From: Callorhinchus milii
Taxonomy: Eukaryota
DNA length: 64,000 nt
Assembly (NCBI RefSeq): GCF_018977255.1
Contig: NW_024704763.1
Coordinates: forward strand, 4,154,001-4,218,000
Direction: 5' to 3'
Shown here: piece by piece, positions 19,600 through 64,000 of the stretch
How positions within the stretch are numbered: the first letter of the stretch is position 1
Layout of the letters: every line of letters starts with the position of its first letter
Translations under genes and position numbers: made by a program
Notes under the pieces: model-generated
The model's database searches: none
Told to the model about the DNA's origin: nothing
What the model saw: the letters and a program-made list of their open reading frames with translations, nothing else

Positions 19600-19900
19600 C
19601 CAGAATATACTGTAAAGCGAACTGTCTATTTTGTGAGCGAAATGCAGCAGCCGCTTGCGCACAGTAGCCACCCACAAACAGTCGCGGATTGAAGTGACCC
19701 ATTTATTATTTTTTTTTGAAGGAATTATTACCCCGAGAAAAGTGATCTGCCAATCGACTAACAACCGGGTTCCTACTTTCTGCTAGATAAAGAGAGGCAC
19801 GTAGAATAAGGAAATTTGCCCAACATTTCGCCCTGCCAGGAATCGAATCCAGGTCTCTCGCTTGCAAGGCAAGTGCTCTAATCACTGAGCTACAGGTCTC
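19600..19900 (-). mobile_element. SINE copy upstream of TTLL13
   Basis: Head (CTGTAGCTCAGTGATTAGAGCACTTGCCTTGCAAGCGAGAGACC on -) plus body. Confidence 0.8.
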
Positions 19901-20214
19901 CACAAATGCTCATTGTTGGAGGGGCTTTCTTTGGATGAGACATTAAACCTTTGTCTCATCTGCTCGTTCTTCAGATCCCATATGACAACTTGAATTTATA
20001 TAGCACCTTTCATGCAGAGTAGTGTGTCTTTACTGGAAAGTGATTAATTGATTATTCACTTTGACTAAATTCCTGTGGTAAATTCCTACCTGTAAATCGG
20101 ATACTGAGTTTGCCTAGAAAAAAATCAGTCACTGACTTAACAGGATTTATTGTATAATAATAAGGCATTTCTATATTAGTGTAACTAACAGTCAGATGTG
20201 CCGGCAACAAATAA

Positions 20215-28888: not shown

Positions 28889-28945
28889 TTTCTCGTGACG
28901 TCGAGCAGCGCTGGATCACGTGGGCTCCTCCTCCTGCCAATCACC
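28880..28945 (-). promoter_or_regulatory. GDPGP1 proximal promoter
   Basis: YY1-type AAAATGGCGGC overlapping the start codon, TGACGT half-CRE, E-box CACGTG (~28917-28922), CCAAT (~28937); CpG-rich. Confidence 0.45.
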
Positions 28946-32800: not shown

Positions 32801-35800
32801 TCCCCTGGTTGGAGAAACTAAAACCAGGGGTCACAACCTTAAAATCAGAGGCTAGCCCTTCTTCACTCAAAGGGTGGTGAATGTATGGAACTCACTACCC
32901 CAAAGGGCTGTTGACGCTCAGTCCTTGAACATATTCAAGACTGAGATAGATAGGTTTCTTATTGCAAAAGGGATTAAGGGATATGAGGATAACGCAGGGT
33001 CAGGTTATTAGCTGGAGTTAGATTAGAAGATCAGCCATGATTGAATGGCGGGGCAGGCTCGAAGGGCCGAATGGCCTACTCCTGCTCCTACATGTTATGT
33101 TATTGAGACATAGCATCCTGTGGCACTGGATGATGCACCACACCTTGGCCAGGCATTTTGTCAGCCACTGTGTGCAGGTTTAGGAGAATTCTTACCACTT
33201 GCACTTACGGAATGCCAGGCCCCTGCTGCTATCTCAGCCATCACCAACCCATGTAATGCCTCCACGATCCTCGGCTCTACCTCATTCTCAACACTTCCAT
33301 GCCCTAACTGACCATAGCTGGGAAACAGAAAATATATGTCAGATAAAATAAGTAGCAGAATGGAATAATGTCAACTTAGCAAAAATTTAATGTCTGAACA
33401 TCTCTAGAGAAACACCTCTATTAAATAACCAGTATCCAAATTGGCAAAGATGTACCAAGCACATGGTATACAGAGGAGCCCATTTAATATCCACTGATCT
33501 ACAGGACTCCACAAAATGTATACTCACATCAGTTCCCTTTAACATCCAGTTGCAAAAGTACATACAATCAGGTCTTTCCACTGACCAAAAGAGGTTCATC
33601 CCACACATTTAATGTCCAGAGGGAAAGTTTTTTTTATTATTTCCTGATCAGCAGAATTTATAAAGCAAACACGTGCAAGGAGTACAGTAAATCTCATACT
33701 GGTTAGGCTCTATTGCTCCAGAGAACACGTACATTTCCATAATTGTAGTAGGCACCCCGTGCTAAAGGTGAGATGTGCCTTTTCATTCCTGATTATGTAC
33801 CACACAAACTATGAATCTTATTATAACTTACAATACAATTTTAAAAATACATCTTACTGTCCAGAGCCCCAGGAATAAACAGTCCCACCCATGCTCAGTA
33901 GGAGAGCATGCTCAGTGCCAAGCACCAGTTTTACTACATTGAGCAGAGGTGACAACGATTTGTAGAATGGAGGCACTGTTGTGATGTAGCCACCAGGTAC
34001 CAGCGGTAGCACTATGAAAGAAAGAAAGCAAGAGTGGGTGATAGAACAAAACGTGCAGCTCCTGGTGTTTCAGGACGCTCATCGCAGAGGTCTCTGATCT
34101 CTAAGAGGACGGCGCTGTGGCCTATCATCCTATCCTGACCTTATAAGTAGTTTCTGCACCTGTACTCATTGCTTCCCTCTCCTTCAACTGCATCGTCCAG
34201 GTCACTTTGGCATCTGTTCCTCCAGCAGAGCAGAGCTCTCGAACATCCCAGCATTCCACTTTGTCTTCATACAATACCAGAAGATATTTTTCAGAACAAA
34301 GAATGTCTTTGCAATGCTGATTATCTTGGTTATTAACGCACAACTGCTGCCAAGGGCGACCAGCAACAAAACCATAGAAAAACACAGATCCATCATCTGC
34401 AACAAAAACAAAATAAATTAGCACAATGGAATTTGTTGCGTGTAATATAGTTCGGTTTTGTAAATGATTAAACTAAAGGGATTAAAAAGTGTAATTTAGA
34501 AACTTACCTTACATATACATACACAAAAATATCCCTCTCCCCATGGCTCAGTTGTGAAATCAATATTCAGTTTCATCTTACTAAAATGACAATTGGTTTA
34601 CACTTGGCTCCGCTGCCTGCCCTTAGCTGAGAGGGGGGAGAGAATGAGCCAGATTCCTTCCTAATTCCTAAAATAAGATTACTAATCTTCTGGAAAACTG
34701 CAGATTAAAAATGTATTTCTATTGTTTTCTCCCTACTAAAGGCACTGATTTTTCATGGATACAAATTCATGGGTGTCAATCAATGTTTTGCCCATAAAAT
34801 ACACGGTCAATCCACTTTACAGTATATACTGTGAAGTCCTTTAAGACATCACAATGCCACGATAAGGCGCTTTATCGAATATAAGTATTATTATTAGCTT
34901 CTGGTACCACATGAAGAGTAGCCATTTTTAGTGAGTTTAAATAATGTCTGTGTGACCACTGCGAGGGACCACAGACAAGCTCCATCCTGTCCCTTGATAC
35001 CATTTTTAATCTGCAGTTTGAATAAAATATTTTAAACCCAGAAATTCCATAGTATTACTTCTTGACCCATAACCCGTATCATTCAACACCACCAACAACT
35101 CGCACTTATATAGCGCCCTCCGTGCCGGGCGGCGTCTCGGAGCGCTTAACAATGGTGGAGCCCAAGGTGACCCAAGCACATACAGCGAGCATTCATGACC
35201 GCAGGTTACAGGTCAGAGCAGGACAATCATCTTAAAATCATACTTATAAATAAAATGTTCAGTTTTTTTTAATCCTCGCCTTTGATATCGCATGGCATTT
35301 AGAAAGAACATCAAGAGCGACTGAATAATAATCCTTGCATTTGACATAGGGCTTTTCACGTCTTCTCGACGTCTCAAAGCGCTTCACAGAATAGACTGTA
35401 AAGCAAATTGACTGCATATTTGTGGGCGAAACGCGGCAGCGCACAGCGGCGTCCCCACAAACAGTCGGGGATTGAAAATGACCGATGTGTTATATTTTTT
35501 TTGAGGGATTATTATCAGAATTAAAAAGTGCTCCACGAAGATTTCTGTGTAAAGTGTGAAAATTCTGACACACCTTAAAACGTGGGGAGATTTCTCCAAA
35601 AAAAAACTCCCCCCAATTGTATGTCAGCTCTTTGAAGTGACCAGTGTCCTCGCTCAGTACCCCCCGAACCGGTTACCTGCCCCCGTTACCTGTAGTCCTG
35701 TAGCTCAGTGGTTAGAGCACTCGCTTTGCAAGCGAGAGACCTGAGTTCAATTCCAGGCAGAGGGCGAAACCTTGGGCAAGTTTCCTTACTCCACACAGAG

Positions 35801-36390
35801 CCTAATAATAATCCCTCCAAAAAACCAAAAACAATAATAAATTGGTCATTTTCAATCCACGACTGTTTTGTGGGACATTGCTGTGCGCAATTGGCTGCCG
35901 CGTTCGCCCACAAACATACAGTCCATTCACTTTACGGTATATTCTGTGAAGCGCTTTGGGACGTCTTAGAAGACGTGAAAAGCGCTATATCAAGATGCGA
36001 TTATTATTATTAGTCGTAGTATTATTATCACAGCAGCAGCAGCTCACCCGTCAGCCATGCAGTGCGTCCCCAAGTGGGGCAGATCCGAGTCCCAGGCCTC
36101 TGAGTCTCCCCCGGGCCCTGTCTGGGGTGTGACGGCGGTGTTTGAGAAGCTTCCCCCAGGCTCTGGGCCTCAGGCTGTGACGGTTGCGGTAATGGCGGCG
36201 GGGCCGGGGGCGGGGCCGGGGGCGGCCGCTCGCTTCTCTCCGCGCTCTGTTTAAAGCCGGCGAGCGGGAAGCTCACTTCTCGGGGCCTCAGGACCCGACC
36301 CAATCCTCCCCCTTCTCCGGCCTCGCCAATCTGCCCGAACTGATTGAACCCGAACCCGAAACAACGGCAGCGCGAGGAGGAGACCGCCAT
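29840..36390 (-). CDS. RCCD1: RCC1 domain-containing protein 1, 8 coding exons, 444 aa
   Basis: Exons 36390-36048, 34396-34160, 34011-33858, 33317-33196, 31844-31737, 30753-30562, 30117-30088, 29988-29840 join in frame (1335 nt). Motifs [89 protein letters not shown]; lies downstream of UNC45A as in human. Confidence 0.95.
30778..31076 (-). mobile_element. Near full-length young SINE copy in an RCCD1 intron
   Basis: Same head, body and tail in reverse orientation, with a small internal deletion. Confidence 0.88.
32233..33102 (+). mobile_element. 5'-truncated CR1-clade LINE (RT C-terminus plus 3' UTR), degenerate
   Basis: [29 protein letters not shown]...[25 protein letters not shown] with stops/frameshifts; 3' end GAAGGGCCGAATGGCCTACTCCTGCTCCTA..(TGTTA)n. 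Confidence 0.92.
35691..36012 (+). mobile_element. Full-length tRNA(Ala-like)-headed SINE with Deu-like core and L2-type 3' tail
   Basis: A-box TAGCTCAGTGG, anticodon arm CTCGC-TTTGCAA-GCGAG, B-box GAGTTCAATTCC, core TGTGCGCAATTGGCTGCCGCG, tail GAAGCGCTTTGGGACGTC..GTGAAAAGCGCTATA, then (TTA)n. Confidence 0.92.
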
Positions 36391-37663
36391 CGGCGCGAGC
36401 CGGAGCCGCCCCTCCCCACAGACCACCAACCGCCGAGTAACGGCCGTTGGCGTCCTCCCGCGGACTCCGCCCCCTTCCCCGTGACGTCTTCTCCGAAGAC
36501 CCGCCCACAACCTCTCCCCCTCCCCCCTCCCCCCCCTCGAGGCGTCTCAAAGCGCTTCACAGGACACGCTGCACAAAGTCAATTGACCGCGTCCCGCGCG
36601 GGCCAAACGGGGCAGCCGGTTGCGCGCAGCAGCGTCCCGCGGGCAGCCGTGGGTCGGACAGCGAGGACGCCGCTTTGAACGCCCAGTTCCACGGCAGGAG
36701 ATACTTAAACCCAATATAAAAACGAGATGTTGTCCACCGACCCACTCTCCCACCGAACGCGCGTGTGCAGGCACTCACTCGAATTGGCGTGGGAAAGCAG
36801 CTTCTCACTGCCATCCCCCCGACCATTAAGGATTCCTGAATTGCGCAGCGATTGGAAAGACCCAATAAAATGACTACTTGTAAGAGAGATATACGTGACC
36901 CGGAAACGCCTTCCTGAAAGTAGGAAAACCGGACGCGTTACGAGATATCAAAAGTGACCAGTTATCAGAGGATCATAATTAACATTTCTTTGGAGGGATG
37001 TTGAGTGAGCGACGGGTTATGTGTGGTTGATGAATTATGCCAGGGGCCGAGTTATCAGTTTCACTGTAACACATAATCACATCATCGAAACATCTCAAAA
37101 AGTGCTTCACAGGACTTAATTGATTTGCTCACCAATATACAGCACCAAGTCAAGGAATTCTGTTCTGTGTAAAATGTAGTAAATTTATTGCTGAAGATAG
37201 AACAGTGTTGCCCAAAAACATTTCACGTGAAGTGTTGCATTACTTATAACATCTTGTATTTCAAATCACACACTTCAAAGATAATGGGTTTAGTAGTACA
37301 GTACAAAACAGGAATGTGATATATATAATGTATATAAATCATATACACGTCAGGTGGTTGCGAATAAACTAGAACTTGAGATTATAAACCACAGGAAGGG
37401 TTTTTATTTTTGTCAATCCCAAGATTGTTTCGAAATTTTTAAGTCTCAAAAGATATCTCTTAATTTAATATATACAATTTGTTTCTGTGACCTCTGGAAG
37501 GGTGCAAATATACAAGTGTTCACTGAGTTACCAAGAGGTCAATAATGGCAGTGTATAAGGAATGATAGAATAAAAAGAATATTATTTGAAGTCAAGATTA
37601 GGTTATACTCGTCTTCTACATACAGTATTATAACAGTGCAGAACAATACACATTGTAAACAAA

Positions 37664-37985
37664 ATAATAATAACAATCCTTGCATTTGATATAGCGCTTT
37701 TCACGTTGGGAGGACATCCCAAAGCGCTTCACAGAATACACTGTAAAGTGAATTGACTGTATATTTGTGAACGAACGCGGCAGCCAATTGCGCACAGCAA
37801 TGTCCCACAAACAGTCGTAGATTGAAAATGACCAATTTTATTATTATTTTTGGTTTTTGGAGGGATTATTATTAGGCTCTGTGTGGAGTAAGGAAACTTG
37901 CCCAAGGTTTCACCCTCTGCCTGGAATTGAACTCAGGTCTCTCGCTTGCAAAGCGAGTGCTCTAACCACTGAGCTACAGGACTCC
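37664..37985 (-). mobile_element. Full-length copy of the same young SINE family
   Basis: Near-identical reverse complement of 35691-36012. Confidence 0.92.
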
Positions 37986-38732
37986 AATACTTGATAATTG
38001 AAATGACTGGGTCATGGTTAAACTTCTATAAGACTTTGAAAATAAGGAACAAGATTACAATAGAATTACAATCAACTAGGCCCCAAACTAAGCCCCAAGG
38101 CTATCGCTTGCAATTTTACATCATTAATACTAATGGGACCATGCATGCAAAGTACCTAAACTAATAAAATTGTGCTGGGGGTGACTGCAATCCTGTGAGT
38201 ATCATATAAGTTGCATTGTTTTATTGTTTGAGCATTTCAACTATATTTTGAACATGTATGTGTAAAACAATGTATCATAAAGCTTTAAGTGATTCATTAG
38301 GATTAGTTAGAATTCCTTTACAGCCCAGACATATCCGGGTAGATTCAAATGTGTATGATTCTCCCATCCCAAAGCATTTATCTACTTTCCTGATTGTAGG
38401 TTTTTCAAGATGATAAATGAACCTAAAGACAAGCACAAGTCCCCCTGACTGCCTTTCTCTAAATACAAAATCAATCTAGAAAAACTCCTTGAAAATAAAC
38501 TCTGGCATTTGAGACTGCCAAACAATGTTCTAAATCACAGGACAAATAATTTCTAGTGAGCTGTAATTTTGCCTCAGGGCCTAAGGATTGTGATTTCGAT
38601 ATTTTGCTGTAACTTTACTCTGTGCACATTATTTTGGAAGAGCATGAGAAACATCTCCACACTTTAGGGATGGTTAATGAACTCTTATGATGTTTCTTTT
38701 TTTTTTAAAAACTACTTTTCCACAGGAATGTC

Positions 38733-41700
38733 TCAATTTATAGTGGGAACGTCTTCACATTCATTTGGTTTTATCAGTCCATACTCCACTGCTTTGGCGA
38801 GGCACTCCTTGGCATTATCCTTTATTTTGAAGATTTTTTCATCCCCTTCCTTAGCCAGATGAGATAAGATTTCTAGCATCTCGCTCTCAATAAGTTGGGC
38901 TGCAAGATCTCGGTCTGCATTCATCATGTTGAGCACAATAACAACCCCACGGCGCTGCAGATCCAAGTTTGGGCTCAGCAGGAGCGCCTGGAGAATCTCC
39001 AGCCAGTGTGTTGTCTGCAGAGTATAAAGGAAAGAGACATCAACAACAAATTACATTTGTATAGCGCTTTTCATGTCAGGAGGACGTACCAAGGCGCTGG
39101 ACAGTCAGGGATCCACACCCAAGCTGGTGGTTGGGATCAAGAGGGGTGGAAGGCGAGGAGGGTAGGAGGGTGACCGAAGACATCAGCGTTGGTCTTCCCT
39201 CCGAGTCAAGCTTACTGATACTATTCTGAGTGCTATTCTGCTCCATTTGATTGTTTTGGTGAAATTGGTCAAATTGTTACATTGTCCCTGTGCCTTTAGA
39301 AATTGAATAATTAATGTTTACTTTGAAAATGTAATATTATAATAAATGAGCAAGGCTAAGATTTATAATGTTCTCCAGTAACACAGGAACTGTAGTTATA
39401 AGACAATCACAGAACACAATTTTTTCAGAACAGTAACTTAATACTGTGCCAAGGAGGGAGGAAATCACCTCTAGGAGAGGGGAATGTTTGGAAAAAAAGG
39501 TTTATTAAAGGTTTAGTGGACAAAAATAGTTAAATCAAAAGTTTCTCCATTCCTCCTTCAATAAAAAATAACTGCTAACCCCACTCACTACACTCTCAAC
39601 CAGATGACCACATGTATGAATTGCAGTAAATTGAGATTTAGCCTTAAACAGAGCTTCATTTTGGGGGGAATTGAGAGAGGACAAATTAGCAAAAATTCCG
39701 CAGTAAATGGCTGGATCAATCTCCAAGTGAGGTGCATGATGACTGAACCAAGTTAGACAGTCATTTGACCTCAGACTTCCTAAAATAAAGGCATTTTGCT
39801 GCTCTACTAAGCAAAAACAGGCAAGTCTCCCACAATCGAGTGGAAGAAATCCCAGATCATGGGACAAAGACTCACCACTTGTGTGATTTTTTGACAGAGT
39901 TCTGGCTGCAGGGATGTCAGCAAAGCCACAGCCCCAGAAGCAGCAGAGCGCAGCTTATCATCATCTTCCCCACTGTACAACACTAAGAGCTTCAGACGGT
40001 CATTTCCCTCTGCCAGGAACATGGCTTGTACCTGAAACACACGGTGGTCAAAAACACAAGACTCTTTAAGAGCACCAATTCTATGGTATATTTAAAGAAC
40101 TACAGATTGCAGCAACAACAAGATTACATTTGTATAGCGCCTTTCACGTCAGGAGGACGTCCCAAAGCGCTGGACAGTGTACACCACTTGTGTGATTTTT
40201 TTTAGGAACAATAACAAATTACGTTTGTATAGCGCCTTTCACATGGAATACGTGAAAAAATGTGTCTAAGAAATAATGATGCCCTCTTGAGTAATGTTCC
40301 AAACTAAGAATAACTTAAGGCCACAGGAACTTTATCCCACAAAAGACATCTCCAGGAATGGAAAAAAGATTTCTTCTCTGTCAGTCACAGGATGGGATAA
40401 GTGACAATTTGGTATCATCTCAAGCCTCTGAGTTGGAATAAGCCACTTTGCAATGGCATCAAAGGACAACACAATAGTATGACAGTAACTATTTGCGCTA
40501 CATCAACATTACCTCTGGGCTCAGAGACATATTGCACATGCACTCTGTTGCAGCCAATCGGATCATGTCATGGTCTTCAAACATGTAGCTGTCAATCATT
40601 GGAATTGCCTTTTCCTTAATGATTTTCTGGCTAAAAAATAAAACATCCGGAGATTAATCATTCAACTGAGAAACATTGTGTTAAAGTACAATTTTGGGAG
40701 CTAATCCTACCTCCTTTCCAGAAGATGCTGATTAGTGCTGGATAGACTTTAGGAATGGGAATTCTGGCTAGCTTTGGCATTCCTTAGTCCAGGAGCACTA
40801 AGGGCAAATGCTGTGCACTTGCCAATGTCCTGACTGAGCTCAGCAAACTCAGCACATGTACCACTGAGGGAACAACAGCAATAATACATTTGTATAGCGC
40901 CATTCACGTCGGGAGGACGTCCCAAGGCGCCAAGACTCCACATATTTCAGCCACTTACCGGAGTCTCTCATTTATTCCTGCCAAATTAGTCAGTGCCATC
41001 AGCGACTCAAAGTTCTGCAGTGCTGTACACTGTAGATGCAAGAGGGCAATCAAAGGCCGGATGACCTCATAAATCTGAAATTCAGAGGAGAACGCAGGCA
41101 GAGTGATTGCTTATCCAATAACATTTTTCTTTCTCTATGTACTCAGTCTAGGAAGTTACGGTTAGTAAACTGTTTTAACATTGGAGGTATCACAGCTGTG
41201 CCCAATGTGGACCTTGCCCTGTGTCCACACATGTGCACTTTTTAGCAAGGAGAGAGATGCACAAGGACTTTGGATAGTAATCAGAACTGTTGACTCGAGC
41301 TATTCTAAGGAGCAAGTATTCTGGGGCTTCCACTGCTACATTTTTTCAAGACAATGCAAATACACTGCCCTAAATGTATTAGTTTATTCAGAAAATGCTT
41401 GTAATTGAACACTTTATTTTAGCAATTTATTTATGCTGCATTAATACATCCTGTGTAAAATCATTCTGATGTCAGATTATAGAAAGTAAGCCCCATTCAA
41501 ATAAAGGCAAAAAAAAGAAAAAGAATCTCATCTGTGGTAAGAGACCCATGAGACTTACTCTCTCTCCTGGAAAAGCAATTTCTGCATTCGAGGTGATTGT
41601 AATCTTTGCCAATGCCTGACCTGCTTTTATCTTTCCAACATCTGTACCTTCAGAGGACAGAGAGACCAGAGCCTGCAAGAATCAAGGGAAAGAAAGTAAA

Positions 41701-44700
41701 GCAACGATACTATGAAATGGCAATTTATTTGGAATATTCATTTAACTTTTCCATTGGAGTGTTCAGCGCTGGAGACCATAGTAACTCAACATACTCTGTG
41801 AAGGAAAGGGTGGGATGTGGGGACGGAACTCAGCATGAAATCACAAATCTAAGCCACAGGTGTCATGGAGAGGTAAGCTTGAACACAACAAGCATGGAAA
41901 AACAGAATGTTATTTATAATTTATTAACTTCTTTATCGGGATCTTCTCCACCTTGTAATATTTGTTGAATTATTGATGCTTCGGAATAATAGACAAATTA
42001 ATAAATGGCATTCCAGTTTAGGAGGAATAGTAAATTCCACGCCTGGACGACACACTAAAATAATTCTATTAATGATGATAGACCTACACAGTCAATTGAA
42101 AAAATGCATTTTCCTCAATCTTAGATCATGAGCCTCGATATTCCTCAAATCTATTCTCTCCAGTTCCTTGTTTGTTGGGGTAGCAATGAATTACTGTGTT
42201 TCATCTATTATAAGCTATTCACTGTGCATCACAAACCGTAATACGTGTATAATATAAATTGACTTCACATTAGAGCCCCCATCATCTTTACATATGAAAC
42301 AGCTGGAGTGTTATACTAACTGCTGGACTCACCTTCCCTCCTCCCTGGGCGACCACAATTCCACGACCATCTGGGCTCTCTACAAGGGCCAGGAACACAC
42401 TGAATTAGAAAGGAAGAAAGTCAGCATTATTCTTAGATGGATATATAATTCCGTGCTATACTCTTTGGTTAGTGCTCCCACTTACCGAGATATCATTTCC
42501 TTGCACGACTCAGTTAAAGTGGGACTCTCCTTCTTTACCATACACACCAATGCTGACACTACACCCATCTTCAGCAGCTTTGCAATCCTTTTCTCCACGT
42601 ACTTGGTCTTATCCTGCAATTCCAGCAAACAGCCATTCAGTGGCAGCACCCACTTCACTTTGCTATTTCATTCACTTTAACATTCAAACTGAAAGAAAAA
42701 GTAAAATAGAAGAATACTATCCAGTGCCTTACTCTTAAAATTAATAATGAACGTACACACACCAGAAGCAATGTTTAGTGGACATCTCTAAAACTGTGGC
42801 TTTAAACATCTTTGTTTAGCCAGGTCTCTGGGACATAAATACTAATGGCTTCAGTAACTGGAAAAAGTTTTTATTCCATGTAAAGCTGGTACCTTTGGGT
42901 GTTCCTCTGGGATGTGCTGCTTTGCATATTTAGCCAGCTCCAACAGCTGGGGGTCAGGTTCCTCTTTATCGTAACTATTTGTGCAGTTCACAAGGGTTGA
43001 AGCAATTGCAAAGAGAGCCGTTTTATCCTCTGACTGGGAAAAGGTAGAATGACATGGTTAGACACAGCCATAGGGAAAATAAAACCAGCCATCGATCACC
43101 AGCACATTACCTAACAGGAAGATACAAAGTATTCTATCACAGTAATGTACAAACTGGGGAAATGGTTGGACTCTTTGTCAACATCCAAATCTAGAATCGT
43201 TTGGCACTAGGGTGATTCTCTAATCAAGAGTACATTTACCGACCTTGCATGATTGTGTGAAGTGATGAGATAGAGATAAATTACATTTTTATTTCTGTAC
43301 CTTTGCAAGTTCAAACATTGCATGCATTGCAGGCTGGTCCTCCACAAACTCCTCCTTCACATCAGCATCGAAGGTCAGGTATGCCAGGCCCTCCATAGCC
43401 CAGCGCCGGGTACCAGACTGAATCACTTCATTACACAACCACCTATCAGGGCAAAACAGCAGCAGGATCAGAACCAAAGTAAAAATCAAGACCTCAAACT
43501 TCAGTCCAAGAACTTTGCTGAATATTCAGTACCACTTTCCATTCAGGATGAACCTCTCACGCAGTTTACAGACAAAGATGTTGACCAAAGGCATGGATAC
43601 AAGAAAGAGGTTTTTGAGAGAGTTTTAAAGTTAGAGAAAGTGAGGGAACAAAATAAAGGCAGACTGTTGCAGAGAGCAGGACATAGTGCCTGAAGCTCAG
43701 CCACCTATGTAAAATAGAGAGCGAGGAATGATCAGTAGACCAATGTTAAAAGATCAGAGGGCATAGGTGGGAGAGAAGGCTGGAGAGAGGGAGCAGCAAA
43801 GTCATTAAATGATTTGAGGATCTTAAGTTGAATTGCTATGCTTGTGGGAGCCAGCGGAGTCTGATGTAAGTGGGTGCAAAGTCTGGTTTGAGAGACAATA
43901 CAAACTGTTTGGAGCTCCAATAGCCCAGAAGGCTCCAGCTCTATGCTGATCTCAGTAGGGAAAATAGTTAGGGTGCTACAATGGCTGTTTTGGGGAGAGT
44001 TTCAAGATCACTATCCAGTGCCCCTGCCTGGAGGTGCATGTGTGTGGATGTTAGATGAGGCCCCAATTAAGCTTATCCGTGATGCCCATCAGGGTGAATT
44101 ACATTTGCATCAATGCATTTGCTTGCATATGAAGAATGGCCACTTGTGTGAGGAGCTGTAGGCAGCAATCACACTGAATTTTTATAGTCATAATTACCTT
44201 CACAAGGGATAACAAATATTAGAAACAAACCCACCTGCGACACTGCTTCGCTAATTTGCAAGTTGACCCTTCAGCAAACTGCTTTATGCTACAATCAGTG
44301 CCCCCGGCAGAACCCACCTTACACAAACCCTGAAAACACAAACAGAAAAATCTGTATACGTCACAGTCAGAGAGACACACAGCACAATTCTACAGAGGTT
44401 TGTGCCACGTTTTAGAATATCAAAGCATGTCCCTTAATGTAGAACTGAGCCATTCAGAAGCTCTGAGATTCTTTTTCCTGATTTCAGTAATCTCAGTCGG
44501 TGAGGCCACAGCAATGTCAGGAACGCCCCAGGCTTGATGGGCAGGAGGGTTAAAGGGAGAAATCAAGCTTTAATGATAAGTAAAGCCAAAGTAAATATAA
44601 CAAAACCCTACTCTAATCCTAATTCCCTGTTTTTCCATACCTTCCTTTATAATCTTCCTCTACAAATCTATTTCCTTTTAAATGTGGCTATGATCTCCAT

Positions 44701-47700
44701 CTCAATAATAATGTCAGCACACAGTACATGAGTTCCAAGTCCTGATGTGGGGCTTCAATCCACAACATTCTGACTCAACGGTGAGAGTGCTACTAACGGA
44801 GCCAGGCTGACACACAAATAACCATTTGTGACAAAGTATTCTGCATTCTGTTAATCCTCTGCATAGAAATGTTTCTTCTAACTTCCCCTTAATTGTTCCA
44901 ATGACATTCCTGATGATGAGACCCCAAACCATTCCTTAGCTGGGGGTTGGAATGCAGACAAGGGGGTCACAATGAGTTTATCCAAGGTGTGGATAAGTGG
45001 TTTTCTACTATGCATGTAAAATGCTGTGGGATGGCAGAGAGATCTGGGGGTACAAATGAAAGGACATAAACGGCAGACACAAAAAGCTCTGAAGACGACA
45101 AATGAAATTCCAATCAGATGGTTTAGTGCACAACTGTAGATGTACTGGCACTTACCACCAGAGCTCGGATCTTGATTTGGTCGTTATCGTTCTTTTTGTA
45201 AATCTCTTTCAGGAGCATGACACCATTCGCAGTGATGAAGGAGGCACGTTTAGATTTCCCTGCCGCGTGGATCAGCGCTTCCACTGCCACCAGCTGGTCA
45301 ATTTCCCGCTCGGAGGCACACAGAGAAATCATGCACTCCAAGATCCCACTCATCTCCAGAACTCGGTTTCCCACCTCCGAGGGCCCCTGGAGGAGCGTGG
45401 AGGCTGTCTGAATGGCTCGCAGCTTCCCGTTCATCCCTTGAGATTCAAATTGGTTCCTGAATACCAGAAATCACATGGAAATTTTAAACGCTATTAATAT
45501 GTTTGAGCATTTAACAGCTTTCTTCAAAAGCTCAACCAATTTATTCAGAGAGCAGTTGAGTCATACTCTCTAAGCTGGAAGGCCTGAGGTTTAAGTCTCA
45601 GTCTGTGATACGTTAGCTGATCTAAGGCAGGACAGTAAATTGCCTACTGATCAGACGCAAGACTGCTATCACGTGACCCAACCTCCACAGCAATAACCGG
45701 ATTTACTTCCATTTCTCAAGAATTAAGCAATTCAACATTCACCCCTGATCTGCCCGTGCCCCTACCTGACATAGTCCTCACAGAGCTTGTGGAAGTTTTC
45801 CCGTTCTGCGTCACTTTTCAGATCATCGTACAGCTTGCTCATCAGCACCGACAAGCTCATGCGACTGCTCTCAGTCACCACCAGGCTCCCCGGGATTTCT
45901 GACACAGTCTCAGCCACTTGCAGAATCTTCTTCATTCCTGATGAGAAATGGAGTTTCCATGGTTTATGGAAAGACTAGACATGCAGCTCCATGGACAGAG
46001 AAAAGGCAAGAAAAATGGACTTTGGGAGAATGCCAGACAGCAGGGCTTAGAGACTGAGGGCTTGACCACCTAGTGTGGAATGGGGTAAGTGAGGAATGAG
46101 CAGCAAACCAAAGTCTAAAGAGTGGAGAGTGCAAATAGGGGATTAAAGCTGACAGGTCAGGTGAGGGGGAAAATCATTGAGGGATTTGAAAATCAGGACA
46201 AGCAAGGTTGATGAAGTCAATTCAATGAGGTACTAAACAAAGCCTGTCAAAGATTGGAGTGATGGGTGTGCAGAGGGAGAGGGTATGGGCCATGGAGACC
46301 ACTCACCCTGGTCAATCACCCAGATTGTCATGGAGTTGTCTGGATCTCGTAGCGATTTGCGGGGAACATTTTTAATTAGAAGATTTATGGAATTCTCTCG
46401 GCCATAAACTGAAACCTCTTGTTTTGTCAACATCTCAATCAGGTGGTAGATCATCGTCCTCAGTTCTTTGGAGGGATCTGAAATTTGACAACAAAAAAAA
46501 AACCTCTTGCATGAACAAACACCTTTACTGAATGGTATAATACTTATACTATTCGGGACAGAGTACCATGAGTTGGATCATGTTTTAAAAGTTCTGCAAA
46601 TAATATAAAGAACATTTTGTTTTGTTCTATCCAAATTCATCAATTCAAATTGGGTTGAGCTCTGTATACATCACTAAGCCGACAGTGAGGCAACTGAATA
46701 GAGTGGAAACTGCCCCCTACCTCTCCTCCATTCTCCCCCTCACCCATCTATGCAGCCTTGACATTAGCACTTCAAAGAGTAAACATTTAAACACATGCTG
46801 CAATTATTCTCCAACACAGCAACAAACACACGCAGGGACGTCATACCCACCGAGCACTAGTGCCTCCTCCTTCCCTCGAACCTCACTTTTTATTCCACCT
46901 TTCAATGCTTCGAACATGCCCTGGAGAACACTGCAAGCTGCCAGGGAGACCTGCTCATTACTGACGGACATCACACGGCAGAACTTGTCCATTCCCATCG
47001 TGTTCAATATTGCCATTGCCTGCACAGCACAAGTCAAATATCATAATACTCTCACATAATCTGTTTTCCTCTAACTCGTTCCATCTCTAACCTCTCACCC
47101 AAAGTGTCCTTTACTTAATTATAAACTTTGACAGAGTTGGTAAGGTAGTCAACCGAGTTATACCGCAGCCAAGCCGATCCTGTCTTCACCCACAGATATG
47201 TGCACTTCACATATGGGCACCTTCCTGCAGGTGTCTCAGAGCAACAACAGAGCAAGCTTTGTAGGAATGGAAAAGATCTGAGGAGCAATGACTACAATAT
47301 CAATTAAAACAGAAATCGACAAGCAAAGTTGTGATTGGAGATGTTGGAGGTGAAAAATGAGCAAAGATCAACTATCAAATGATGAGCCTTTCTTCTATCC
47401 TGTCAGGAATATGAGTGACGGGCTAAAAGATCCTCTCCTGATATGAGGAGTAAAATTAAATAGTATTACAGGTAACAGTCAGACAGTTAGAAACGCAGCA
47501 CAATACGGTGTTCTCAAGTCTTTTCTGCTTGTAAGCTGCTTGGTGACTGACCCGAGATTGATGACCTGAACACAATCCCACAAGAGTCCGCAGTGAAGCC
47601 AACATGATATCGGTGCTTCCCGTGTCCAGCATCTTTTGCAGAAGGCGCACTCCATCACTGCGGAAAATCCTTTGCGCACCCGCATCTTCCCGAGCAAGAA

Positions 47701-50671
47701 CGATCAGATTCTGTACTGCCTGCAGCAGGAGAAAACAACTTCAATTATATTCAGGCTGGGAAAATAATAATAATTCTTGCATTTGATTCAAGTGTCTCAC
47801 CATGGTGAACTACCTCAAAGTTCTTCACACGGCGAGTTACGTTGCATTGCAAGTAACGTATGTCCGCAAACACAACAGCTAATGTGTGCCAGCAACAACC
47901 CACACTAATCAATGGCCAATTCCATCGTTTTTTGATGAATTTGGATATCAACCAGGACACCGAAAGAAACTCCCTGTTCTTCCTCCAAATAGCACATAGA
48001 GTTAACGTCCACTAGAACTAAGGGGACAGGCAGCACTTCCCATTAAACATCTTTCTCAGGACTGCAGTGTCATCGTAAACACAGAGATTAGTTTATTTCC
48101 ACACACTTCATATTTGTCTTGGGACCAGGTACAGGCCTATTGGTGCTGCAACCAACATATATTCAAGTTTTGTTAACAAAATAGATATGAAATTAAATAT
48201 TGGCAATTACTTTAAATTCATGGGTCCCAGTTGTGGCTGAACATGACCTCTTTAGAGTAACCAATCTATTGTATAATAGATTCAATAAACTAAATGAAGG
48301 ATAGGTCAACCATATTAATTCTTGTCTGGTGAATCTTACAATATTTTGTAGGAAATCCCTTCTGAGATGAGATCTCTTTGGAGACATCTCTTTTCAAGGC
48401 TTGACAGCCCTATTCTATCCAGTCGTTCCTCATAGTTCATCTCTCTAACACTGGGGATTATCTTCCTTGCTCTCCTCTGCACTGCCTCCAGGGCATAGCA
48501 AGTTCCTTGAAACCCAGGCCAGTCTCTCAAAATACAGACCTTCTGCTTCTTGTCAGAGTCCTTCTCCCCAGCATCCAGAAGGATATTAAACATCTGCTCA
48601 ACTCGGGCATCGGTGGAGGATTGTAGATGGACCTAGAACGATAGATACAATAGAAGTATTTGTGAGAACGAGCTTCTACCTTCAAAACACTTGTAGGATT
48701 CAGAACTCAGCAATAATAAACATGCATATATTGGATCAGAGTGAGAAAATAAATCTTTCAATATTTATCACCCTTTTTAGCACTAATACAATTAGTTTTT
48801 TGAAGCAGACATAGAAATCTGTGCCTTCTCTTTATTTCCAGACCTGCAACATTATATTGCATTAATATTTCTCTATTAACTCTGCCCATAATTGGGCAGC
48901 TCATCTAGATTTTTCTCTTTGCTAAATTTCTCTTCTCTTATCCTTTTTTGATTCACCTTTGTTTCTCTTCTTCCTCACCTCCACCCTCATTCTCCCCTTA
49001 CCTTCTGCTGGATCTGTGTTGCAATTAGGCGCAGCGACTCCTGGAAGACTTTATTCTTTGGTTCTAGGACCGCACACCTCTGGTTGTCTGCAAATGCCTG
49101 ATCCAACCTCCCCAGCTTCTGTAATGCCTGGCTCCTCCGAAAGAGCGCTTTCACATCCTTGCCATCAGCTTCGATGGCTGGGAACAAAAGGGAGAGGTTC
49201 CCAGTCACTAAATGTTCTCATACATGCCACAGACCTGTCTCTACCCGTATCACCATATAAACAAGATAGATAAGAGCATCCAGTGGGGGGACACAGTCCA
49301 TAGAACTGGCACTTTTCAAATAAAAGAACATCTCAAAAGTACTTGCGCTGTACAATGCGTGGGAAAATAGGACATTCAAAAATATTCAAAGGAACTGTCA
49401 AAAAGATATATTTTTAGGTTCTCAAAGAGGAAGAAAGTAGCAAGGCAAAGTGAATTTTCAAAATCCCATAAGACAGTGTCGTGATGACTGAAGGCTCAAC
49501 CACCAATGGTGGTGTTTAAGGGAGTGAGGAGCAAGTAATAGACCAGAAGAGAGAACATGAGCTGGAACGTAGGACTGACTTTCGTAGATACAATGGACTG
49601 AGACCAGGAATCCAATAGGAGGCCAATCAATTCACTGAACCTACGCTGGTGCCAGCATCAATCACTCACCTTTAGAAGCATCTGCTTCAGCTTTGGAGTA
49701 CTCCTCCTACATAAAAAAATTGAAGAAATTAGGATCACTATGTCCATGGAATTGAACGGATTATAGATTATATCAACACTGTAATTTATCAGCTCAGTTT
49801 TGTTTCACTCACCAACTTGAGATAGCAGGCTGCCCTGTTGCGGTGTAGGACTGCAGCACTTGGTTGCTCTGGAGACAGCTTGATCGCTTGTGTGTAGCAG
49901 GACAGTGCTGCTTCATGGTCTCCCAATTTAAAGTACTTGTTGCCTTCTTCCCGCAGCTGTGCCAGGCTGACCTACAGTACACACACAAAGAAGAACATAT
50001 TAGGGCAAATCTCCCTCCATGCCCAGTAGGTAAATGCAGCACATGGATATACAGATATATTTTTTTCTGAGTTAACAGATCTCAGCTGGGACAGGAGACT
50101 GGGCTTAAATTAGCCTCAGCCCTCCTAGTTATAGAGAGGGGGGAATCAGTCAATGTATCCCTGTTCCTGACCCATAACCAGATACGCCCAACTGGGGAAG
50201 GTGCAGCAGGGATGGATCAGGAGCAGAGAAGGTGTGTGGATGCCGGGTGAGGGCAGGACACCATTGGCTTTGGTTGTTGACAACTCCTTGCAATCAAAAA
50301 CAACCTCTCTCCCTGCTCTCCTGCATTAACTCATTCAACGCCTGTGTGAAGCGAGGACACGGCCTTTTGGAGGGCGGCTGAGGAGGCAGAACGCAGGTCA
50401 GTCAATCAGACAGTGCCTTCAGAGTGGGGTGTGTGTGGGGGGGAGGGGGGGATCACTGAGAGGATTAAGAAACGAAGGGAAGCCACACAATGAGTCTCTC
50501 ACTCTCTCTCAGTCAGTGGCTCCTCAGCCCGAGGCCGAGCCCGGGACCAACTTCAAACTCAGCTCCACATCCCCGTGTTTTCACTCTACCCCTCACGGCT
50601 TCCCCCCAACCTCCCGCTCTTTCACTTTCTCTCGCTCTCTCTCTCACCGTCTCTCCGTTACAGACCGACAT
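38733..50671 (-). CDS. UNC45A: Unc-45 myosin chaperone A (TPR + central + UCS domains), 20 exons, ~942 aa
   Basis: Exons 50671-50648, 49971-49813, 49706-49670, 49177-49002, 48632-48540, 47719-47552, 47019-46851, 46477-46307, 45937-45766, 45456-45156, 44329-44235, 43442-43301, 43033-42893, 42613-42486, 42399-42333, 41672-41559, 41074-40959, 40630-40513, 40031-39876, 39014-38733 join in frame (2829 nt). [24 protein letters not shown]; [42 protein letters not shown] paralog by synteny with RCCD1/MAN2A2. Confidence 0.96.
39042..39182 (-). mobile_element. L2-type LINE 3'-end fragment
   Basis: AACAACAAATTACATTTGTATAGCGCTTTTCA..GGAGGACGT..AGGCGCTGGACA plus a shared G-rich extension also seen at 4860-5005; short copies at ~22980, 31210, 40113 and 40880. 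Confidence 0.6.
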
Positions 50672-50689
50672 CCCGACCTCGGCTCCACT

Positions 50690-50800
50690 CCCAATCGCAG
50701 GACTCGTTATTCCGGTTACTTCCGTCCGAACGTCGCACGAGCTTCCGGCGCGAAGTGCTGACGTCATTGGCGCCTTGACTTTTTGTTGATCAATGAGCGC
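50690..50800 (-). promoter_or_regulatory. UNC45A CpG-island core promoter
   Basis: Tandem ETS-type (C/T)TTCCG sites 50710-50748, CRE TGACGTCA at 50759-50766, CCAAT (ATTGG on +) at 50766-50770. Confidence 0.6.
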
Positions 50801-52083
50801 GGCTGTCAATCACTGACCCCCGCCCCCCCGGGCTGTCAATCACTGACCCCCCGCCCCCCGGGCTGTCAATCACTGACCCCCCCCCCGGGCTGTCAATCAC
50901 TGACCCCCGCCCCCCGGGCTGTCAATCACTGACCCCCGCCCCCCGGGCTGTCAATCACTGACCCCCGCCCCCCGGGCTGTCAATCACTGACCCCCCGCCC
51001 CCCGGGCTGTCAATCACTGACCCCCCGCCCCCGCGGGCTGTCCATCCTGACCCCCGCCCCCCCGGGCTGTCAATCACTGACCCCCCCGCCCCCCGGGCTG
51101 TCAAGCACTGACCCCCGCCCCCCCGGGCTGTCAATCACTGACCCCCCCGCCCCCCGGGCTGTCAATCACTGACCCCCCGCCCCCCCCCCGGGCTGTCAAT
51201 CACTAACCCCCCCGCCCCCCCTGGGCTGTCAATCACTGACCCCCCGCCCCCCCCGCGGGCTGTCAATCACTGACCCCCCGCCCCCCTGGCTGTCAATCAC
51301 TGACCCCCACGGCTGTCAATCACTGACCCCCCCCCCCCCGCATCCCCGGGCTGTCAATCACTGACCCCCCGCCCCCCTGGCTGTCAATCACTGACCCCGG
51401 GCTGTCAATCACTGACCCCCCCCCGCCCCCCTTGGCTGTCAATCACTGACCCCCCGGGTAGTCAATCACTGACCCCCCGCCCCCTGGGCTGTCAATCACT
51501 GACCCCCCCGCCCCCCCGGGCTGTCAATCACTGACCCCCCGCCCCCCGGGCTGTCAATCACTGACCCCCCGCCCCCCCCCCCCCCCCGCTGTCAATCACT
51601 GACCCCCCCGCCCCCCGGGCTGTCAATCACTGACCCCCCGCCCCCCGGGCTGTCAATCACTGACCCCCCCGCCCCCCCGGGCTGTCAATCACTGACCCCC
51701 CGCCCCCCGGGCTGTCAATCACTGACCCCCCGCCCCCCCGGGCTGTCAATCACTGACCCCCCGCCCCCGGCTGTCAATCACTGACCCCCCGCCCCCCCGG
51801 GCTGTCAATCACTGACCCCCCCGCCCCCCCCCGGGCTGTCAATCACTGACCCCCCGCCCCCCGGCTGTCAATCACTGACCCCCCGCCCCCCGGGCTGTCA
51901 ATCACTGACCCCCCGCCCCCCGGGCTGTCAATCACTGACCCCCCGCCCCCCGGGCTGTCAATCACTGACCCCCCGCCCCCCGGGCTGTCAATCACTGACC
52001 CCCCGCCCCCTTGGCTGTCAATCACTGACCCCCCCCCGGCTGTCAATCACTGACCCCCCGCCCCCTCGGCTGTCAATCACTGA
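50801..52083. repeat. GC-rich minisatellite, ~43 units of ~30 bp: GGCTGTCAATCACTGAC + variable CnGCnG
   Basis: Directly visible; the 17-nt core is nearly invariant (4 variant units) and unit length varies only through the poly-C tracts. Confidence 0.98.
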
Positions 52084-52932
52084 GCTGACACTCTTATGTT
52101 GGTTCGTCTCCACAACTGCTCCGAGTGGCGTTCGCAATCCTCTTTGTGGTATAACAATCGTTGCATTTGACACAGCGCCTGTGATCACATCCTCGAGACG
52201 TCTCAAAGCGCTTCACAGGATATACTGTAAAGTGGATTGACTGTGTGTTTTGTGGGCGAAACGCAGTGATCTGTGAGGACAGATTGTGCAGATGCTAATT
52301 TCAAATTGCCTTTCAGATTCTTCCTTCCACAATCCCCACCGCCTTCCTATTATTTCCCATTCCGTCTCATTTTTTTTCTCATGTCCGAAAATTGGACCTC
52401 ACACACCAAGTTGCAAACAGGAGGGGGTGACGTTGCAGAGACTGGGAAACACGCTGACACAGCGTCAAGAAATAACATGGCCCCATAGAATGTGATGTTC
52501 AACAACCGCACGAGGCAAATCGGACACAATTACAAGTTTATTTTCCAGCGTTTCCTGATTTCTACGTTGCAATTCTACTTCCATGTCCATCATTACAGCA
52601 TACGGGTAAAATTACATGACGTAGAGGCAGAGCCCCGTAGAGAACGAAATTGACCACATAAGATTGTCATATTTCAGTCTGTATGAAATTAGTGCGGGAC
52701 TTAAAACAAAAGGCTACCGCAGTGTTCAGGGGCTATTCAGTACACAATGAGACACTCATGAGAGCTTCATATTATTTGGAAATGGATGCTGGCTCTGAAC
52801 ATAGGTACTTTCAGGCTATTTTAAAGTTGCTACTAAACACACACCGAGTCCAGAGAGCAGACACGTCCAATGATAGAGGAACCTAAACAGACTTCCAAGA
52901 CACTCCGTTGATCATTGGCCCATTGGATCACG

Positions 52933-54650
52933 TCATGTTTCTGAGATGCACTTCCTGCTCTTCCGAATGCTGCAACATTCGGGGCATCCGCACGGACAGC
53001 AGCGGGTGAGGTGTCTACCAAGGCTGGTCCTGTTCAGCGTGCAGTAGTACAGCATGTCAGTCACCAGCAGCACTGCCAAGCAGAGCCCATATAGACAGAC
53101 TGTACTTAGTGATCCATACTTACTGAAAAAAAACAATGGAACAACTGATGTACAGGAGCAATGTCATAGCATCTCAAAGCACTTCAATGCTAATTACTGT
53201 CAAATGTAGCAACTGAGCACAGAACGACTGTTATTGCACATCCCAGTTTAGCGTGGGGATGGATCCGCACTTTCCTGGAAGCTTGGTACACTTCCAGCTT
53301 CCAACGCTTGGCCGGCTGGCTTCCCGCACATTGCATGATAATAATAATCCTTGCATTTGATATAGCGCATTAGTATGTTGTTGAGATCTCAAAGTGCTTC
53401 ACAGATAATTCTGTAAAGTGAATTGACTGTATATCTTGTGGCCGAAACACAGCAGCCAATGGCGCACAGCAGTGTCTCACAAACAGTCGTGGAGAGAGTT
53501 TCTTAATTACATTAATTAAACCACCAATTAATATGATAGTTTGGGCCCCTAAACTCAGACCCAGCACTATAATGTGGGGTACTAAAATATGGCCTTATGT
53601 CCACCAGAATCACAAGGCAGAAATTAAGTTAATAAATACAATCAAAAACCAGGATGATGATCTGGAAACGAGCAGAAAAATTGGATCCAACATAGAATAT
53701 AATTGACAATAGTATCAAGTAGATAATTGCTACCTACGCGTACAAGGAGGGCAGTGTGGGGTTAATTCCAGTCATGTTCTGGAACTCTGCCTGATTGCAG
53801 CAGTATTTCAGGGTCCGGTTACTCCGGTGGCAGCAGTAAGCGTGTTTCTGGTCTTCGTTGAGCCGTGGGCAGTGGAATCCAAAGTGGTACAGCTCAGCGG
53901 AATCCAGGTATGACTCGCAGAGCCTATACTCAGAGGCAGAGGCTGAACACACAGAGTTCACGGTCAGCGTCAGATCACTTGATTACAGATTTACAGTTTA
54001 AAGCGTGGGGAACGTCAGCCGCGAGGAAGCACTTTTTTTGCTGGAACAATCGCTCACCACTGGAAGAAAACATTCACACCACGATCATTCTAGAATCACA
54101 TAATCACATGGTTCAGAAACAGACCATTCAGCCCATTAAATCTCAGATGGAGGTTTTCTCTACATAAACCAAACTGGTCGCACTCTTCTGCTCGCTTCCC
54201 CAACCCTTTAATATCCCCTTTTGCAAGCATCTATCTAAATCGCTTCTAAAATAGCTTTTGGACTCTGCATCAGCAAGCGTTTGTGTCAAGTTGCAGTAGT
54301 CCTTAACGTGTTCCTAAACTTAATCCTGGCAGCAATTACTACTGTCTTGGTCATATCTTGATTTACTCCCGGTGGTTCCCTCTCCCTTGTACCCAATTAT
54401 GAAACTGATCTCCACCAAGTTGGATTTTTCAATGTTTTGAAGTAACAGCCTGAAGTTTTTATTTTTTGCCCCTTTAGAGAATCAAAAGCATATTTTTGTT
54501 AATCCTTATTTTCTGGACCCAATGAAAATCGTGCTCACCACAGGCCAGAAAACGTTATCAAGGTCAGTGCCTTGGAGCTACTTGGTACATACCCATTAAT
54601 GGTCGCTCACAGAGAAGGAGGATAGTCAGGAACTGAATGCCCAGCGACAT
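52933..54650 (-). CDS. Shisa-like protein 1 (KIAA1644) family single-pass membrane protein, probable paralog, 3 coding exons, ~150 aa
   Basis: Exons 54650-54593 (signal peptide [19 protein letters not shown]; phase-1 donor GTATGT), 53942-53738 ([19 protein letters not shown]....[19 protein letters not shown]; donor GTAGGT, phase 2), 53122-52933 ([24 protein letters not shown] then Cys-rich tail). The 6-Cys pattern and [10 protein letters not shown] match the SHISAL1 family. Confidence 0.85.
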
Positions 54651-55590: not shown

Positions 55591-55904
55591 AGCTCAGTGG
55601 TTAGAGCACTCGCTTTGCAAGCGAGAGACCTGAGTTCAATTCCAGGCAGAGGGTGAAACCTTGGGCAAGTTTCCTTACTCCACACAGAGCCTAATAATAA
55701 TCCCTCCAAAACCAAAAAACAATAATAAATTGGTCATTTTCAATCTATGACTGTTTGTGGGACATTGCTATGTGCAATTGGCTGCCGCGTTCGCCCACAA
55801 ATATACAGTCAATTCACTTTACAGTGTGTTCTGTGAAGTGCTTTGGGACGTCCTCCCGACGTGAAAAGCGCTATATCAAATGCAAGAATTATTATTATTA
55901 TTAT
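55591..55904 (+). mobile_element. Young SINE copy nested in an older SINE
   Basis: Matches 35700-36012; flanked by AACAC(AGC) on both sides. Confidence 0.9.
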
Positions 55905-62259: not shown

Positions 62260-63715
62260 TCAAACCATCCGGATCTGGAATGTGGAAACTTCCATCGACT
62301 TCATGGAAATAAGGCCACTGTTGTTTAACGGCTCAGACGGATAGAGCAGGGACAGAGACGTGGGTTGGACACTCCGAATGTCTAGGCCTTGAAACAGATT
62401 CTCGATTGAGAGCTGCATAAAAACATTATGGATTTAAGCTACATTTAAATTATCGGGATGTTTGAAAAGAAGATGCAGAAGAACCCTGTTATAACATGCT
62501 CTATCTAATGCAAGGATTATTATTATTATTATGTGGTAGTTGATCACATCAGTGACATCACTGCGCACGGGCACAGAAAGTCAACCAGCTGCAACAGTGC
62601 AAATTGCACTTCAAACTGCAATTTATGTTTCAAAGTAGGGGTTCTACAGAATAACAACAACTTGCACTTATATAGCGCTCTCTGTGCAGGGCAGCAACTC
62701 AGAGCGTTTAACAATAGCAGAGCCTTACCTTCCAGAACTTGGAAGGTAAGGTTTAAAGGGTACACAGAAAAGGCAGAAAAATAAGATTAAAACATCTAAT
62801 CAACTGTCAGAGCAGGTTCATGAGACTGAATGGCCTCCTCCTATTGCTGAGTGCATCCTACCTTGCCATGGGTGGTGCTGCAATTGAAGCCCAAGGTCTT
62901 GGCCTCCAGGCTGCAGTCAAATCCTTTGCGATGGAGAATTAGTGCAGACTCCGAGCCGGGGGCTGAAGCCACCTGCAGCACAAACACCAGAGAAAGTTAG
63001 TCATTCAGTAGCTGAAAGTCAAGCTTCAGCACAAACTAAAAAGCGGGGCTGGTGGGTGGAAAATAGATTAGAAAAAACAAAGTGCATGACAATACTTAGA
63101 ATAATAATCCTTCCATTTGATATAGTGCCTTATCAAGTCATCAAAACGTCTCAAAAGTGCTACACTGCATATACTAAGTGGATTGACTGCGTATTTTGTG
63201 GGTGAACGTGGCAGCCAGTTGCGCACAGCAATGTGCCACAACAACCATAGAATGCGTGACCAATTTTATTGGGAATTTGTTGGCCGGAACATCAGGTGAC
63301 AGAAACTCCCTTCTCTTAAAAAGTTCACTTAAAAGGTTCCTGGATAAATATTGGGAGTTGAGATTGGGGTATGCTGCTCTGTGGGAAGCTAGCATCAGCA
63401 CAGAAACGGGGAATAGAATTAAAGAAGCATCCAAAAGCCCAGACTATGAGTTCAAGTCCTGACATTACCAAGAGAGCTAGGAGGATACTGAACAGTTAGT
63501 TTGCTTTTCTTGCTCCTCACCTCGGACTGCAGAGTTCTTAGGTTCAGGATGTGCGTGTCGCATGGCACGCTTGCCGAGAGCGGCTTCCAAGACCTCACTG
63601 GCGGAACGATCTGGGGCCGGGGAATCACCGGCAGGGCCATGACCTTGTGGTTCACATACATGGAGGTCATGTGGCTCAGCAAAGAGGGAAAGCTGACTGG
63701 CCTGCCATCCTGCAC
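62260..63715 (-). CDS. MAN2A2: Alpha-mannosidase 2x, last three coding exons (gene continues beyond the window)
   Basis: Exons 63715-63521 ([16 protein letters not shown]...[15 protein letters not shown]), 62972-62862 ([29 protein letters not shown]), 62412-62260 (NLFQGLD...[10 protein letters not shown]...[11 protein letters not shown]); all phase 0; upstream of UNC45A as in human. Confidence 0.93.
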
Positions 63716-64000
63716 CTGTGAAAACAAGACACCGGATGAAGACGCCTGCATTTGATATCTAGGTTAATTCGGTCTCACCTCTCACTATAAATGGAGACTA
63801 CACTGGGTGGTAAGTTGATCACCTATCTGCCAATTATCCCTGAATCATTTTCCTGCTGCTACTGATTCCCCTGCGGTCAGTGTAGCAAGCGATTTGCAAA
63901 CCTCGCCAAATCAAACTGTCAGACATTGTCAACCGGAACTAGCAATTAACACAACAACAAACCGGGTTTACAAATACCCAAACTTAATGTTGGGCACAAC

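Follow-up and report, generated by a model that had tools for sequence, protein, structure and literature searches.

A minisatellite of PBX-PREP decamers and GC boxes at the promoter edge of elephant shark UNC45A, probably a tolerated repeat with little dose effect

Promoter minisatellites that carry transcription-factor sites are established in humans, the examples including the XRCC5 Sp1 VNTR and the repeats of TPMT, HRAS1, CSTB and ZNF232 (PMC8096271, PMC8024321). According to the figures of one of these reports, 6.1 % of 2,672 tested human genic VNTRs are expression-linked, about twice as often where the repeat lies no more than 100 bases from the TSS, and 65 % of human eVNTRs show expression rising with length (PMC8024321). 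A related group consists of tandem repeats in humans that carry as many as 61 SPI, AP-1 or SP/KLF motifs and are closed by MORC3, most of which are described as being without effect on genes (PMC13373173). The DECA decamer, in turn, is known as part of a TALE/NF-Y/Sp2 complex that is reported to require about 11 bases (10–12) between DECA and CCAAT, with cooperation predicted to fail beyond 12 (bioRxiv 10.64898/2026.02.16.706105). Amphioxus mirage minisatellites are locus-specific repeats that are unstable in length and, as far as their description goes, apparently do not disturb the host gene (PMC3087553).

The array described here lies in a 64,000-nucleotide stretch of the Callorhinchus milii (elephant shark) genome, hereafter the window, which contains no N. 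It spans 50801–52083 and is the sole long tandem array that TRF finds in these 64 kb (period 30, 42.5 copies, score 1734); having a head-to-tail unit within the 7–100 bases of minisatellites, it belongs to that class. When the array is cut at its core, it divides into 43 cores, each 16 bases long, and 42 spacers rich in C, with a core at both ends, the final one stopping at 52084. The features to which we refer are listed below, where X1 and X2 are two different DNA samples from one study.

38736..50671, minus strand: UNC45A coding span, from mapping of the 942-aa protein
50648..50731, minus strand: UNC45A exon 1, with the ATG at 50671 and 8 codons
50719..50747, minus strand: two ETS-type cores in the CpG-rich core promoter
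50759..50766, no strand: palindromic CRE, the same in the X1 and X2 contigs
50766..50770, minus strand: CCAAT box, separated from the first decamer by 32 bases
50803..50812, minus strand: decamer closest to the promoter, unaltered in the window and likewise in the X2 contig
50801..52084, minus strand: 30 bp minisatellite of 43 cores and 42 spacers, its motifs read on the UNC45A strand
51258..51456, no strand: diverged middle of the array, with recurrent dimers at units 16–17, 19–20 and 21–22
52537..54650, minus strand: shisa-like-1a, coding 54650–52933, on the other side of the array with its 3' end facing it

The original prediction of about 43 PBX-PREP/MEIS decamers stands for the number of cores, and perfect decamers number 40: the exact 10-base motif of a PBX and a PREP half-site occurs on the minus strand in 40 of the 43 cores, the altered copies being those of units 9, 11 and 23. 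The name given to the motif can also be kept, its sequence agreeing with the DECA decamer as given by Ladam 2018 (PMC6023610). A 9-base GC box, likewise foreseen, is present in 36 of the 42 spacers, and 33 units have both motifs. Only one exact decamer is found in the remaining ~62.7 kb of the window; with up to one mismatch allowed the whole window holds 51, against a shuffle mean of 6.9 and a count that none of 100 shuffles reached. Judged by the window background, about 5 in 10,000 random 30-base units would contain an exact decamer, a figure to be read in the knowledge that many other motifs would have looked equally striking. The array contains 75 CpGs; most of its CpG sites are intact, with clear CpG transitions in three spacers (units 14, 17 and 23) and ambiguous ones in four. 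It was ruled out as a coding repeat by a lack of hits and by broken frames, and an Rfam search of the window gave only five tRNA-like hits, none at the array. An abundant tRNA-headed SINE family, with Rfam tRNA hits at its head, is scattered through the window (505–681, 19630–19902, 30769–31074, 35691–35965, 37656–37986, 55591–55900 and others), and by eye a SINE tail fragment can be placed about 55 bases to the right of the array, at about 52140–52300.

The neighbouring gene is UNC45A, as had been proposed: the exon at 45147–45461 is 100 % identical to C. milii UNC45A records and 85–87 % identical to most of the shark and ray orthologues listed, the 942-aa protein maps as given above, and exons 1 and 2 are joined in contigs of X5 and X7, two probable RNA runs whose classification as RNA is a guess. 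Genes downstream of UNC45A carry RCC1, EF-hand and TTL domains; from the human 15q26 order we take them to be RCCD1, CIB1 and a TTLL13-like gene, an arrangement that fits UNC45A rather than UNC45B. Within the CpG island of the RCC1-domain gene there is a 2.4-copy 12-base GC-box repeat (36197–36225), possibly a seed of like kind. Further along, an intronless 445-codon frame on the minus strand (27578–28915) has no Pfam hit and is presumably GDPGP1 by synteny; a decamer-like sequence overlapping CCAAT lies in its promoter, at 28934–28943.

The X5 contig extends to 50731, so that the UNC45A 5' leader is at least that long, and this furthest transcribed base seen lies 70 bases from the array; the X5 and X7 contigs leave the stretch 50752–50846 uncovered, a gap from which no firm conclusion on array transcription or on the TSS can be drawn. 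Measured distances from the array start are 129 bases to the ATG and 34 bases to the CRE, close to the ~130 bp and ~35 bp expected for the ATG and the CRE/CCAAT core promoter. On the far side, the only poly(A)-type signal between the shisa-like-1a stop and the array is at 52537–52542, and the array occupies the ~1.8 kb gap between the end of that gene and the start of UNC45A. A bidirectional promoter is ruled out, because shisa-like-1a is on the same strand and has its 3' end here. The array is intergenic and upstream of exon 1, and so is not a mirage minisatellite, the unit of which spans an exon-intron boundary of the host gene. No other promoter-like region of the 64 kb window was found by TRF to have a long array. 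An exon-like frame upstream of shisa-like-1a (63452–63763, minus strand) has no Pfam hit.

Part of the region 49700–52700 is contained in 14 of 24 listed runs, all from one organism, and the best four of the 14 hold 0.47–0.49 of its words, about the share that the flanks alone give. Four of the 24 runs were compared with the promoter flank and the first unit and a half, that is, with one flank only. A single contig in each of X1 and X2 joins promoter sequence to the first unit, and the junction is therefore real; unit-type contigs are present in both samples as well. These short-read contigs stop inside the first units and leave array length unreadable, while the unit sequence does differ between the samples.

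Contig depth on the unit is 25–33 in X1 and 6–12 in X2, compared with values near 8 in the flank and near 12,000 in a CT-repeat bin, a rough measure with which a few small arrays elsewhere would be compatible. Because of this depth, and because no alternative flank at 50801 was found among the loose contig ends displayed, the unit is not a high-copy satellite, and the view that it is locus-specific rather than generic holds for the two DNA runs compared (6–33 against ~12,000 in both). It is barely credible that a generic satellite or transposon-derived repeat landed here by chance: the comparison of a single flank and the ten further loose ends outside the display leave it some room, but in the same runs the depth of the unit is hundreds of times below that of a true genome-wide repeat, and the 14 runs with matches represent one organism. 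A metagenome scan with the 19-base core gave three single matches with one decamer each, in unrelated sequence, which were taken as chance, and a protein search with a translated piece of the array, aimed at mis-annotated copies in other sharks, passed none of 1,923 candidates, a weak result confined to lengths of 55–177 aa.

Assembly inflation would mean that the array is short and that its 43 copies, together with a large part of the variation in C-runs, result from consensus errors. Long reads usually err in homopolymer length, the unit depth of 6–33 is far below the ~335 expected from 43 copies, and the best runs contain about the share of words given by the flanks. Contig depth, however, is no copy number, and repeats collapse in short-read contigs; moreover the junction and unit-type contigs recur in X1 and X2, the recurrent substitution variants and dimers resemble real turnover, and the substitution that X1 carries at 50810 is found again in unit 11 of the window. 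We regard inflation on this scale as very improbable.

Several features of the array bear on its growth. The unit that comes after a T-variant lacks a GC box in 4 of 6 instances, compared with 2 of 35 where the preceding unit is not a T-variant (Fisher p=0.002; the pattern was picked after inspection, and unit 42, a variant with a different end, was not counted as a T-variant). The dimer of T-variant and following unit is seen again at units 40–41 (51983–52037), and the mean edit distance is 4.3 in the middle third compared with 1.9 and 1.4 at the array ends. Together, the recurrent dimers and the diverged middle point to internal re-duplication. Homogenisation of neighbours was not detected, adjacent units being no more alike than in shuffled order (4.27 and 4.24, p=0.53). 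A good copy of the core was not found outside the array in the window, where the best has 5 mismatches in 19.

In each unit a short stem enclosing the five central bases of the core is predicted, with z-scores of −2.5 to −3.6 relative to shuffled sequence. A 4-base inverted repeat with a 5-base loop, at 50805–50817 and in every unit, shares bases with both the decamer and the conserved stretch that follows, and the constant core is thus also a hairpin. The suggested G-quadruplex potential is likewise supported by prediction, with a G4Hunter mean of 1.37 on the minus strand of the array and values of at least 1.2 in 62 % of 25-base windows, against 1.9 % elsewhere in the window. Pairs of G-tracts lie 15–19 bases apart, mostly 17. 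Among G4-forming minisatellites, the human CEB1/CEB25 and INS VNTR repeats share with the array a G-tract-rich strand and a high G4 score, whereas the G-tract pairs of the elephant shark array are split by a foldable 15–19-base loop and only six canonical short-loop G4 patterns occur in it. Structures of these kinds have a role in the instability of G-rich minisatellites, and the hairpins and G-tracts may promote instability of this array too.

The recombination background of the species has been described in different ways, one report finding C. milii PRDM9 to be partial and slow to evolve, with no detection in RNA (PMC5519329), and another counting it as complete (PMC8892340); simple tandem repeats are reported to be enriched on short holocephalan chromosomes (PMC12952989). 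One might suppose that the elephant shark amplifies promoter-edge motifs into tunable minisatellites via recombination at CpG-island promoters, which would be plausible if an atypical PRDM9 does not direct hotspots, and that the array acts as a TALE/Sp dose switch of natural origin and would be the first homotypic cluster of PBX-PREP sites whose copy number sets the output of a gene; the odds against this seem to us long.

The core promoter beside the array has a CpG o/e of 1.5 over 50660–50800. There are 10 differences from the window in X2 and 11 in X1, all in the array-proximal half of the compared stretch (p about 0.002 and 0.001), although they are largely common to both samples and the distal half includes a coding exon. 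They are confined to 50341–50812, with none in 49780–50340 and four in the 100 bases closest to the array. Such clustering could reflect a boundary between haplotypes, faster mutation close to the array or errors in the window, and contigs drop alleles, so that X1 and X2 may be heterozygous at the sites that differ. In X1 the decamer closest to the promoter has lost its PBX half to substitutions at 50810 and 50812, while its PREP/MEIS hexamer is retained. The CCAAT box is destroyed in both of the other DNA samples compared, which differ from the window at 50767 and 50770. By hand count, 50764–50774 with these two changes matches the repeat unit at 10 of 11 bases, against 8 of 11 in the window, which hints that this segment may be a local source of the unit or a product of conversion from the array.

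The CCAAT box that had been placed near the array is therefore present in the window but not fixed. The arrangement of DECA with NF-Y that the original prediction invoked does not hold, and a DECA-CCAAT composite is ruled out: the spacer is 32 bases rather than the canonical 11, the array contains no CCAAT, no same-strand composite at 8–14 bases occurs anywhere in the window, and the box is missing from the X1 and X2 contigs. Given the 32-base spacer and the absence of CCAAT from the repeat, the array is accordingly one of DECA plus Sp/KLF motifs and not a DECA-CCAAT element.

Conservation of the core had been put forward as a possible sign of constraint on the motif, and this was not borne out. 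By hand tally, changes affect 5 of 430 decamer bases and 2 of 258 adjacent non-motif, non-homopolymer bases (p=0.72), a test of little power with seven events in related units. Since no excess of conservation is seen in the decamer over its flanking bases, the apparent conservation of the core would be explained by homogenisation. Spacers vary mainly in C-run length, with 25 types among the 42, a pattern that slippage and consensus error would both produce.

An open array might nevertheless bind PBX-PREP and Sp/KLF proteins according to its length and set UNC45A output as a copy-number rheostat or enhancer, with an effect that might peak in the early embryo, a stage at which DECA sites are occupied by TALE factors. 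Its 40 exact DECA motifs and 36 GC boxes begin 70 bases from the furthest transcribed base, the Prep motif of the zebrafish blastula is reported to be mainly DECA with Sp/KLF motifs near those peaks (PMC6023610), and the human survey finds TSS-proximal VNTRs expression-linked twice as often (PMC8024321). We consider such a rheostat unlikely, in view of a decamer without excess conservation (at low power), the absent DECA-CCAAT geometry, the promoter-nearest decamer broken in one sample and a human base rate of roughly 6–12 % (PMC8024321).

Alternatively, the number of motifs could trigger MORC3/DAXX-type closing or CpG methylation, leaving the array shut or the promoter edge dampened. The tens of same-type motifs found in MORC3-restricted clusters are matched here by the DECA motifs and the GC boxes alike, a MORC3 effect is predicted for 35 copies as compared with 5 (PMC13373173), and the clear and ambiguous CpG transitions noted above also speak for it. 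Silencing of this sort seems quite improbable all the same: TALE motifs are not among the classes named in section 13 of that report (PMC13373173), most CpGs of the array are intact, and UNC45A is transcribed and spliced in the two probable RNA runs.

We favour the reading that the array is a locus-specific, tolerated minisatellite with little dose effect on UNC45A, and give it a probability of about 60 %. Its position, unit anatomy and motif counts, the junction common to two samples and the low abundance of the unit are the observed parts of this reading. An array of PBX-PREP and Sp/KLF consensus motifs probably arose by local duplication at the edge of a CpG island and would have grown by slippage and unequal exchange, aided by the predicted hairpins and G-tracts; internal re-duplication, seen as recurrent dimers, and changes in C-run length are visible in the sequence itself. 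Each unit may fold into a short stem-loop, and the paired G-tracts 15–19 bases apart may form quadruplexes. The promoter-nearest copies could bind TALE and Sp factors, UNC45A transcription would depend mainly on the CRE/ETS core, copy number would be of little weight, and the array would be tolerated and not selected as a dosage switch.

A prior for a dose effect is provided by the human VNTR rates (PMC8024321) and by the mostly effectless MORC3-closed clusters (PMC13373173). The odds of function are raised above it by the forty perfect sites, and are lowered by the first decamer being disrupted in one sample and by the lack of NF-Y geometry. In favour of the tolerated minisatellite are the decamer broken in X1, the CCAAT box absent from the X1 and X2 contigs, the decamer without excess conservation, the spacers that vary mostly in C-run length, the recurrent dimers, the hairpin and G4Hunter scores, the low unit depth, the human VNTR rates (PMC8024321) and the tandem-repeat enrichment on short holocephalan chromosomes (PMC12952989). 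Against it, 40 perfect sites of predicted high affinity at 0.1–1.4 kb from the TSS seem unlikely to be wholly inert, no other promoter-like region of the window has a long array, an exact decamer is rare in a random 30-base unit, the conservation test has little power, and most human eVNTRs (65 %) gain expression with length (PMC8024321); the poor match of the best core copy outside the array speaks against the local origin.

Humans have both promoter repeats that bear factor sites and clusters in which motifs number up to 61, and a TALE-decamer version was not found in the literature searched. That search, with most subscription papers outside its scope, returned no TALE-decamer tandem repeat or homotypic PBX/PKNOX1 cluster, nothing relevant on PBX at the UNC45A promoter and, by title or abstract, no such array among C. 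milii minisatellites. If the array is a tolerated repeat only, it is one more locus-built minisatellite, of use mainly as a case for the origin of repeats at the edges of CpG islands. Should the array prove to be bound and to act by dose, it would provide a naturally graded series of PBX-PREP sites lacking NF-Y; one could then ask if DECA can work by itself, and if the MORC3-type silencing of large motif clusters also applies to TALE motifs and in cartilaginous fish.

In comparison with the described systems, the array resembles human promoter VNTRs in being a GC-rich tandem unit with transcription-factor motifs within about 100 bases of a TSS, and differs from them in combining a TALE decamer with a GC box, in 43 copies and in a cartilaginous fish. 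With the MORC3-restricted repeats, such as IFNB1-MRE and its 45 PU.1 sites (PMC13373173), it has in common about 40 motifs in the same orientation, including those of SP/KLF type; unlike them it abuts a core promoter, and TALE is not a class reported in the parts of that account compared here. Like the DECA and DECA-CCAAT elements bound by PBX-PREP, NF-Y and Sp2 (PMC6023610; bioRxiv 10.64898/2026.02.16.706105), it has an exact 10-base DECA near a promoter with Sp/KLF sites alongside, but it has no CCAAT at 10–12 bases and its DECA is amplified 40-fold. The amphioxus mirages (PMC3087553) likewise consist of locus-specific tandem copies of a functional-looking signal; whereas the mirages copy exon-intron boundaries, the elephant shark array is built of promoter motifs from a source that was probably local.
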